Below, piece by piece: positions 6,704-7,051 of a DNA stretch of 64,000 bases. The notes below the pieces were generated by a model. It was not told the origin of the DNA. It worked only from the letters and a program-made list of their open reading frames with translations, and did not search any database. Position numbers and translations under genes: made by a program. The stretch comes from a virus, in the IMG/VR virus record IMGVR_UViG_3300042934_001067, positions 92,277 through 156,276 of that record. The stretch is one strand, 5' to 3'. Numbering within the stretch: position 1 is the first letter of the stretch; every line of letters starts with the position of its first letter.

Positions 6704-6734
6704 GAAGGGCCCCGCTCAACCTACGGGGCCCTTC
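6704..6734. terminator. Bidirectional hairpin terminating the recombinase operon and the repeat-array transcript
   Basis: GAAGGGCCCCG-N9-CGGGGCCCTTC, 11-bp stem. Confidence 0.7.
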
Positions 6735-7035
6735 ACCTCCGCAAGTGCGGAGCAATCTTGCTGACCACATGGCTTGCGCCGTTGCGATCCACCTCCGCCG
6801 GAGCGGAGCCACACCCCGCCAGTGCGGGGACTACTCGGAATACCAAGCCGAGCCACCCCCGCGTCGGCGGGGAAGAGTCTCAGAGCGCGTCATCACCGTG
6901 CTCTTCAACCGGTACACCCCCGCAGATGCGGGGAGCAACGCACCTCTGCCCTTAACGAGGGCCATCCCCGCAGGTGCGGAGAGCAGTTGTGCACGCCCCT
7001 GAGGCCGGGGCCATCCCCGCTGTCGCGGGGAGCAC
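6729..7035 (-). CRISPR. Cas-less array of seven divergent 29-nt type I-E-like repeats
   Basis: Repeats at 7007-7035, 6958-6986, 6910-6938, 6849-6877, 6806-6834, 6785-6813 and 6729-6757. On the minus strand all follow N5-C(C/T)CCGC-N4-GCGG(G/A)G-N8, e.g. GTGCTCCCCGCGACAGCGGGGATGGCCCC. Spacers are 20, 19, 32, 14, none (8-nt overlap) and 27 nt. Confidence 0.85.
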
Positions 7036-7042
7036 GTCTACG

Positions 7043-7051
7043 AAGTTAGCA
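7043..7051 (-). promoter_or_regulatory. Putative extended -10 (TGcTAACTT) for the repeat array
   Basis: Ends 7 nt upstream of the first repeat on the minus strand. No convincing -35. Confidence 0.5.

Follow-up and report, generated by a model that had tools for sequence, protein, structure and literature searches.

Background

Cas6e cuts the type I-E repeat at the base of its stem and leaves an 8-nt handle. Cascades also assemble on spacers shortened by 6–18 nt, and these complexes neither lock R-loops nor support cleavage by Cas3 (PMC6859484). In hosts, CreR represses transcription through partial pairing at a promoter (bioRxiv 10.1101/2023.03.10.532045), and the host CreR/CreA mini-arrays are single-spacer units within the cas locus that have a partial match beside an AAG or AAC PAM upstream of casA (bioRxiv 10.1101/2023.03.10.532045; 10.1101/2023.03.03.530964). 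Viral mini-arrays directed against cas promoters were predicted in the second of these studies (bioRxiv 10.1101/2023.03.03.530964). Racrs are phage-borne repeat mimics placed behind a promoter and processed by host Cas6; they are solitary and do not pair with a target (Camara-Wilpert et al. 2023, PMC10651486). Cracr arrays, as described in the main text of their preprint (Liu et al., bioRxiv 10.1101/2024.10.29.618823), are cas-less viral arrays with degenerate repeats and shortened spacers that mimic the seeds of host CreR/CreA, have PAM-flanked promoter targets, and supply several guides per transcript against one CRISPR type. According to the same text, viral Cracrs repress through partial promoter pairing and also compete with crRNAs, and the I-E arrays reported, which were found by CreR similarity, carry two or three spacers usually aimed at close strains.

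We analysed a stretch of 64,000 nt (the window), which corresponds to bases 92277–156276 of a 156,276-bp virus record with a CheckV completeness of 100. Its minus strand carries a cassette that is very probably a multiplexed Cracr array (Cas/CreT-repressing RNA anti-CRISPR), acting by promoter repression and by competition with crRNAs. All properties of Cracr arrays that can be examined by sequence were found: repeat-like units have their own promoter and terminator; at least nine PAM-proximal bases are in common with host CreR/CreA for spacers S3, S1 and S2, though not individually for S4 and S6; a PAM-flanked partial target lies in a cas/creT promoter region, perfect for S3 and with one mismatch for S1 and S2; and at least two different spacers are directed against variants of one CRISPR type. 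A canonical I-E array looks different, with identical repeats, 32–33-nt spacers and a cognate cas operon; in the cassette, the repeats are 13–23/29 identical, the spacers span 14–32 nt and there is no cognate cas. The cassette likewise departs from the solitary repeat of a Racr, with seven repeats in 307 bp and targeted spacers, while sharing the predicted processing by host Cas6, and from host CreR/CreA units in being phage-borne and concatenated.

Compared with the I-E Cracr arrays in the main text of that preprint, the cassette has five guides aimed at at least four lineages with ≤33% Cse1 identity, lineage-matched chimeric repeat frames, a 14-nt guide, a fused double hairpin and no linked acr gene that we could find. 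It is not new as a type of system, since the underlying principle has been published; the novelty is the number of guides, the divergence of the targets, the chimeric repeats, the 14-nt guide and two unusual targets. The main text of the preprint makes no mention of Streptomyces, and its supplementary tables could overlap with the present set.

Anatomy of the cassette

The minus strand carries seven 29-nt I-E-like units at 6729–7035, in the places given by an earlier note on this DNA, and, as it had also reported, no two are identical. Nowhere else does the 156,276-bp genome match the I-E stem-loop motif, for which 1.2 matches were expected after shuffling, counting both strands (~0.6 sites); by design, shuffled genomes never give clustered matches. 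The cassette region folds better than 100 of 100 shuffles (z −4.6), and an Rfam search with it returned no match. Its elements and the adjoining genes are the following:

7118–7459, plus strand: divergent flanking gene of 113 aa, kept in L016
7043–7051, minus strand: extended −10 (TG-n-TAnnnT), recognized from the sequence and identical in L016; predicted transcription start near 7036
7007–7035, minus strand: repeat R1, whose tail is the 5' handle of S1
6987–7006, minus strand: guide S1, 20 nt, mimic of host CreA/CreR
6958–6986, minus strand: repeat R2, whose hairpin closes S1 and whose tail is the handle of S2
6939–6957, minus strand: guide S2, 19 nt, mimic of the 18–20-nt guides of cas1/cas3-less I-E loci
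6910–6938, minus strand: repeat R3, closing S2 and providing the handle of S3
6878–6909, minus strand: guide S3, 32 nt, CreR mimic
6849–6877, minus strand: repeat R4, closing S3 and providing the handle of S4
6835–6848, minus strand: guide S4, 14 nt, probably for a lineage with 14-nt CreRs
6806–6834, minus strand: repeat R5, with its hairpin at 6829–6814 and a 5-nt linker to R6
6785–6813, minus strand: repeat R6 of the CT/AG-stem type, with its hairpin at 6808–6793; the tail is the handle of S6
6758–6784, minus strand: guide S6, 27 nt, with CT/AG-stem repeats on both sides
6729–6757, minus strand: terminal repeat R7 of the CT/AG-stem type
6704–6734, minus strand: terminator-like 11-bp hairpin without a U-tract, shared with the convergent ORF
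6586–6702, plus strand: hydrophobic single-helix ORF of 38 aa, converging on the cassette terminator; the region is kept in L016

The extended −10 proposed to precede the first repeat by 7 nt was located at that distance from R1, with its TG at 7051–7050 and its hexamer at 7048–7043. The proposed terminator corresponds to the 11-bp hairpin at 6734–6704, which overlaps the tail of R7 and lacks a U-tract. Scans for sigma-70 and U-tract terminator consensus sequences reported neither promoter nor terminator, because there is no match to a −35 element and no U-tract. R6 starts within the tail of R5, with an overlap of 8 nt and only 5 nt between the two hairpins, so that there are five spacers rather than six (S1, 20 nt; S2, 19 nt; S3, 32 nt; S4, 14 nt; S6, 27 nt). 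Host regulatory RNAs in loci L083, L090 and L098 have exactly the handle that R1 provides. The statement that every unit keeps a 6-bp stem needs qualification, since all hairpins are present but the R2 stem includes a U-G wobble that is missing from its L016 orthologue. Furthermore, the CT/AG stem change of the last units had been taken for covariation on the phage; a host repeat family with a CT/AG stem already exists, and the change is therefore ascribed to capture from another lineage, not to compensation on the phage. Counts of stem compensation are biased by the detection rule and were set aside as evidence.

Conservation and related arrays

The closest relative of the element is a 156,949-bp contig from Streptomyces sp. 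MH60 (L016/L368), which carries the same seven repeats and five spacers together with the flanking regions. Between the two, the promoter is unchanged, the stems differ only by the wobble, S3 varies only at kink position 6 and in its PAM-distal half, and the terminator hairpin retains its stem with a replaced loop. Similar arrays occur on ~40 other viral contigs. An extended −10 motif lies upstream of 15/40 of them against a background of 1.8%, and a terminator-like hairpin follows 29/40 against 11%. Among 107 phage spacers, 60 are exactly 6n+2 nt long, a spacing that equals the period of the Cas7 backbone, and 25 more are 6n+3. Spacer families recur across unrelated phages, with conservation of the PAM-proximal part. 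Synteny of the array is lacking in L006–L008, and it was therefore considered a mobile cassette.

These comparisons bear on whether the cassette is merely what is left of a captured CRISPR array, in decay and now functionless. Such a remnant could explain that all repeats differ, that the spacer lengths are irregular, and that the hosts of two relatives lack a Cse1 match. However, the L016 element has kept promoter, stems and seeds while loops and distal parts changed; the architecture and the guide families recur in the ~40 contigs and in phages ZL12, Samy and Cumberbatch; and the spacer lengths are periodic. This conservation and recurrence make decay unlikely and indicate that spacer sequence matters, so that the remnant reading is largely refuted by the conservation pattern and scarcely credible; the earlier view of a selected cassette thus stands. 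The missing Cse1 match in the two hosts, Streptomyces sp. MH60 and NPDC021080, also counts against the Cracr reading, as regards co-occurrence with a target; the search was made in draft genomes, and a wide choice of guides may be useful to an element that passes from one strain to another.

Fused double hairpins of the R5/R6 type were also detected in L016, L185, L209, L215, L217, L239 and L240. The stem type switches at four of seven such fusions, three of these four switches probably being of one origin, versus 4/109 unfused junctions, which suggests that each Cas6e type may require its own hairpin at a fused junction.

Several related arrays are worth recording in their own right. The 155.7-kb element of Streptomyces NPDC021080 bears an array of about ten repeats (L008:225–830), with guides of at least four host CreR families, three in common with the window. 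Unannotated arrays are found in cultured phages Cumberbatch and its cluster relatives (L012:2290–2640), ZL12 (L013:2990–3190) and Samy (L014:1380–1520), which constitute models open to experiment; spacer 2 of ZL12 equals the regulatory guide of L082 at 10/10 positions. The same array type is present in a region of S. flaveolus (L373:2930–3110). A family of 19–21-nt phage spacers (family E) recurs in L197, L008, L210, L225 and L373, and no target for it was found among 180 I-E loci.

Host regulatory guides

A set of 180 Streptomyces I-E loci was collected for the comparison of guides and targets. It contained 48 degenerate one-spacer units whose seed matches a site of their own locus flanked by AAC, AAG or AAT, in most cases a short way upstream of casA or cas3, and which by these sequence features are CreR/CreA-like elements. 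Of 111 phage spacers, 14 match a host regulatory seed at nine or more of ten informative positions, compared with 0.18 ± 0.43 after shuffling (maximum of two in 300), and they are equal in length to the host guides they match. For 7/111, PAM and seed were both matched perfectly at a site no more than 450 bp from casA (shuffled, 0.59 ± 0.73), and the enrichment at promoters is weak if one mismatch is allowed (18 versus 10.2 ± 3.2). These counts are not independent because the phage spacers are related by descent.

Targets of the individual guides

Guide S1 coincides with the regulatory spacer of L098 at 14/15 informative positions (p about 0.0005), and its L016 orthologue at 15/15. The target is an AAC-flanked site on the opposite strand, ~320 bp upstream of casA, which overlies the start and ribosome-binding site of an ORF for a two-helix membrane protein of 69–73 aa. 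S1 matches it at 11/12 positions, with G for A at position 1, and the L016 allele at 12/12. The ORF is kept in L083, L090 and L098 (e.g. L098:5448–5657, minus strand) and belongs to no Pfam family. This arrangement is similar to CreTA/CrePA (bioRxiv 10.1101/2024.01.05.574328), as the host counterpart of S1 lies in the cas3–casA interval and covers the beginning of a small ORF, just as CreA covers that of creP. The CreP described so far is a KilAC protein of type I-F, whereas the Streptomyces product is a two-helix membrane protein and a candidate toxin. Small hydrophobic ORFs occur just downstream of CreR/CreA targets in several Streptomyces I-E loci, with further ones about 290–400 bp upstream of casA in L301 and L318, and from L374:5174 onward; they are candidate CRISPR-repressed membrane toxins and have no Pfam family.

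Guide S2 matches those of L165, L168, L300 and L317 at nine of ten seed positions, with G for A at position 8 (p 0.018), and falls in the 18–20-nt length class of these four loci. Its target follows a conserved extended −10 of casA at a distance of ~25 nt. Searches of the four loci returned no Cas3 or Cas1 match, and the loci fit PADLOC models of a cas1-less Streptomyces I-E variant with either a STAND NTPase (STAND_TPR) or a membrane protein. Six Cascade-only loci in all (L165, L168, L300, L317, L137 and L140) have neither cas3 nor cas1 and contain a lone crRNA-like unit that targets their own casA promoter; in four Cascade-only loci, this unit is downstream of cas6e on the opposite strand. 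Spacer 2 of L240 mimics guides of Cascade-only loci, as S2 does.

The target of S3 is AAG-flanked and ~160 bp upstream of casA in Streptomyces sp. PTD5-9 (L374:5047–5060), with 12/12 informative positions matched within positions 1–14. The search pattern was derived from S3 itself, and the PAM-flanked site and the cas context lie outside that pattern. S3 further agrees with the host CreR at L374:5416 at 13/14 positions, only kink position 6 differing, and both are 32 nt long. In 401 genomes, the S3 CreR pattern gave three chance matches only. Within the window allele, S3 alone has a perfect seed; S1 and S2 have one mismatch each, both G for A and wobble-compatible. The promoter position of the three targets was deduced from sequence motifs.

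Guide S4 is probably aimed at a lineage with 14-nt CreRs. Its repeat frame ranks within the top 0–6% for the six host loci that have such CreRs, and perfect matches to 14-nt-CreR targets were found for sister phage spacers of L008 and L222. We infer this assignment rather than observe it, because S4 itself matches none of the six sampled 14-nt-CreR targets. Its target pattern was found in 27 genomes, not exceeding the control, and never near a known cse1 among those checked. The host CreRs with 14-nt spacers (L112, L113, L122, L124, L125 and L126) are situated ~240–280 bp upstream of casA, implying from their sequences that minimal Cascades may be in natural use. The 5' end of S6 is related to spacers in L217 and L239, and no target was found for this guide in the 180 cas loci, the 401 genomes or a metagenome scan. 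Its pattern occurred in 13/401 genomes, below the reversed control and never near cas genes, and its metagenome matches were chance ones in coding sequence.

Viral mini-arrays have an established role in conflict between mobile elements, and the guides might accordingly borrow host Cascade and Cas3 against rival phages or plasmids, a reading with which the canonical length of S3 and the lack of an assigned target for S6 would agree. Nevertheless, PAM-flanked matches did not exceed nine informative bases in the element's own genome and in a small sample of ~95 viral and plasmid loci, four of the five spacers are too short for cleavage, and the distal half of S3 has diverged, which renders this use very unlikely. 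A BLAST search of plasmids with S1–S3 gave repeat or chance matches only.

Repeat frames and target lineages

For each guide, a composite repeat was assembled by joining its upstream handle to its downstream hairpin and compared with the Streptomyces I-E repeat families, several of which were matched. The S1 frame agrees at 25/28 positions with the arrays of its target loci (top rank), the S3 frame at 25–26/28 with the arrays of L301 and L318 (top ranks) and the S4 frame at 22–24/28, and the S6 frame fits CT-stem arrays. The target loci form four groups, with Cse1 identities of 66–84% within and ≤33% between groups. Since the composite frames fit their cognate arrays best or nearly so, the cassette was taken to consist of concatenated units from different lineages. 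The earlier proposal of a panel matching several host variants is thus right in that the repeats match several I-E families, but their diversity exists because each guide carries the frame of its target lineage.

The earlier note had gone further and placed the main function in the repeats, as multiplexed Racr-type sponges whose hairpins would titrate several Cas6e/Cas7 variants into non-productive complexes, with spacer sequence secondary. The match to several host families would fit, as would the R5/R6 fusion, which would release a spacer-less hairpin, and the lack of a target for S4 and S6. Handle-spacer pairing, at 0.71 versus 0.57 after shuffling in phage arrays, could in addition hinder loading of Cas5, and competition belongs to Cracr action too. 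Against this, Racrs are solitary repeats with an active product devoid of a guide (PMC10651486), whereas here unrelated phages have conserved seeds in common, these agree with host regulatory guides much more often than chance would allow, and the spacers copy host guides aimed at PAM-flanked promoter sites of cas loci. Moreover, in published CreR-armed systems, sponges with a mutated seed raised cas expression and failed. Seed conservation hence argues against a spacer-independent, aberrant Cas6–Cas7 complex as the main mode, and we regard titration by repeats as an unlikely account of the cassette. Host and canonical spacers show no excess of handle-spacer pairing. Handle-spacer hairpins as a designed block of Cas5 were also considered and discarded, given that the excess is modest and the S1 hairpin is inherited from the host guide.

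Proposed mechanism and implications

As a multiplexed Cracr array, the cassette would be transcribed into one leaderless RNA of ~330 nt, which host Cas6e would cut at each hairpin to yield five crRNA-like guides. Loaded on host Cascade, each would recognize a PAM-flanked site in the promoter of a cas locus by pairing over its ~11–14 PAM-proximal bases. Guides that are short, or matched over half their length, would not lock the R-loop or recruit Cas3, so that Cascade would act as a repressor, of its own operon with S2, S3 and probably S4, and of the neighbouring candidate toxin gene with S1. In addition, the array RNAs would draw Cas proteins away from defence crRNAs by competition. The cas-less cassette would thus depend on host Cascade, in keeping with its earlier classification as Cascade-hijacking. 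By origin, the array may be mosaic, its regulatory units having been taken up from several I-E lineages of the hosts. Each repeat would then combine the hairpin of one unit with the handle of the next, and two hairpins would be retained back to back where the stem type changes. Processing, loading, repression, the identity of the toxin and the reason for the fused hairpin are deductions from this sequence comparison. A weak hint of transcription comes from two soil RNA libraries, which contained contigs at 6727–6910 and 6772–7020, both inside the cassette, at a depth of 2–3, and which DNA carry-over might explain; the same libraries had no contigs in the flanking genes.

Beyond the array itself, we tentatively entertain a wider interpretation, in which the cassette would be a genus-wide silencer of I-E systems built from at least four distant Cascade lineages, the S2 target a cas1/cas3-less, STAND-associated variant that selection has led phages to switch off, and the S1 target an I-E CreTA with a new class of toxin. 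If true, S2 and S1 would reveal undescribed layers of host defence. The cassette adds a long mosaic type, from phages of Streptomyces, to the known Cracr arrays, and the guide–promoter pairs named above are directly testable. Phage guides may also serve as pointers to host promoters worth silencing, such as those of the cas1/cas3-less STAND-associated I-E loci or of the candidate membrane toxin, and natural guides of 14 and 20 nt may illustrate how truncated Cascades serve as repressors.

Replicon and flanking genes

The replicon encodes a terminase, DNA polymerase and replication genes and ParA, and its ends overlap by 127 nt, so this Streptomyces element was classified as a phage-plasmid. 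The reported absence of cas genes from the window applies to the full replicon, in which no match to Cas6e, Cas7, Cas1, Cse1 or Cas3-HD was found; the cassette therefore sits on a mobile element, outside any CRISPR-cas locus. The 113-aa flanking gene had no match in Pfam, PHROG or PADLOC, with DUF6303 as a weak lead, and the convergent 38-aa ORF had none in Pfam. A role of the flanking genes as Acr/Aca received no support from family searches.

Elements pSAM1, pSLE1 and similar ones of 90 kb have the same flanking gene and no such array within 6 kb. A 316-aa gene at window positions 5622–6572 (plus strand) has no family match; it adjoins a tyrosine recombinase in pSAM1-like Streptomyces elements, where it is conserved, and its pSLE1 counterpart is annotated as a site-specific integrase. 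At 30848–35896 (minus strand), the window encodes a DnaE-type polymerase of 1682 aa, the first 570 residues of which lie outside the PHROG polymerase match.
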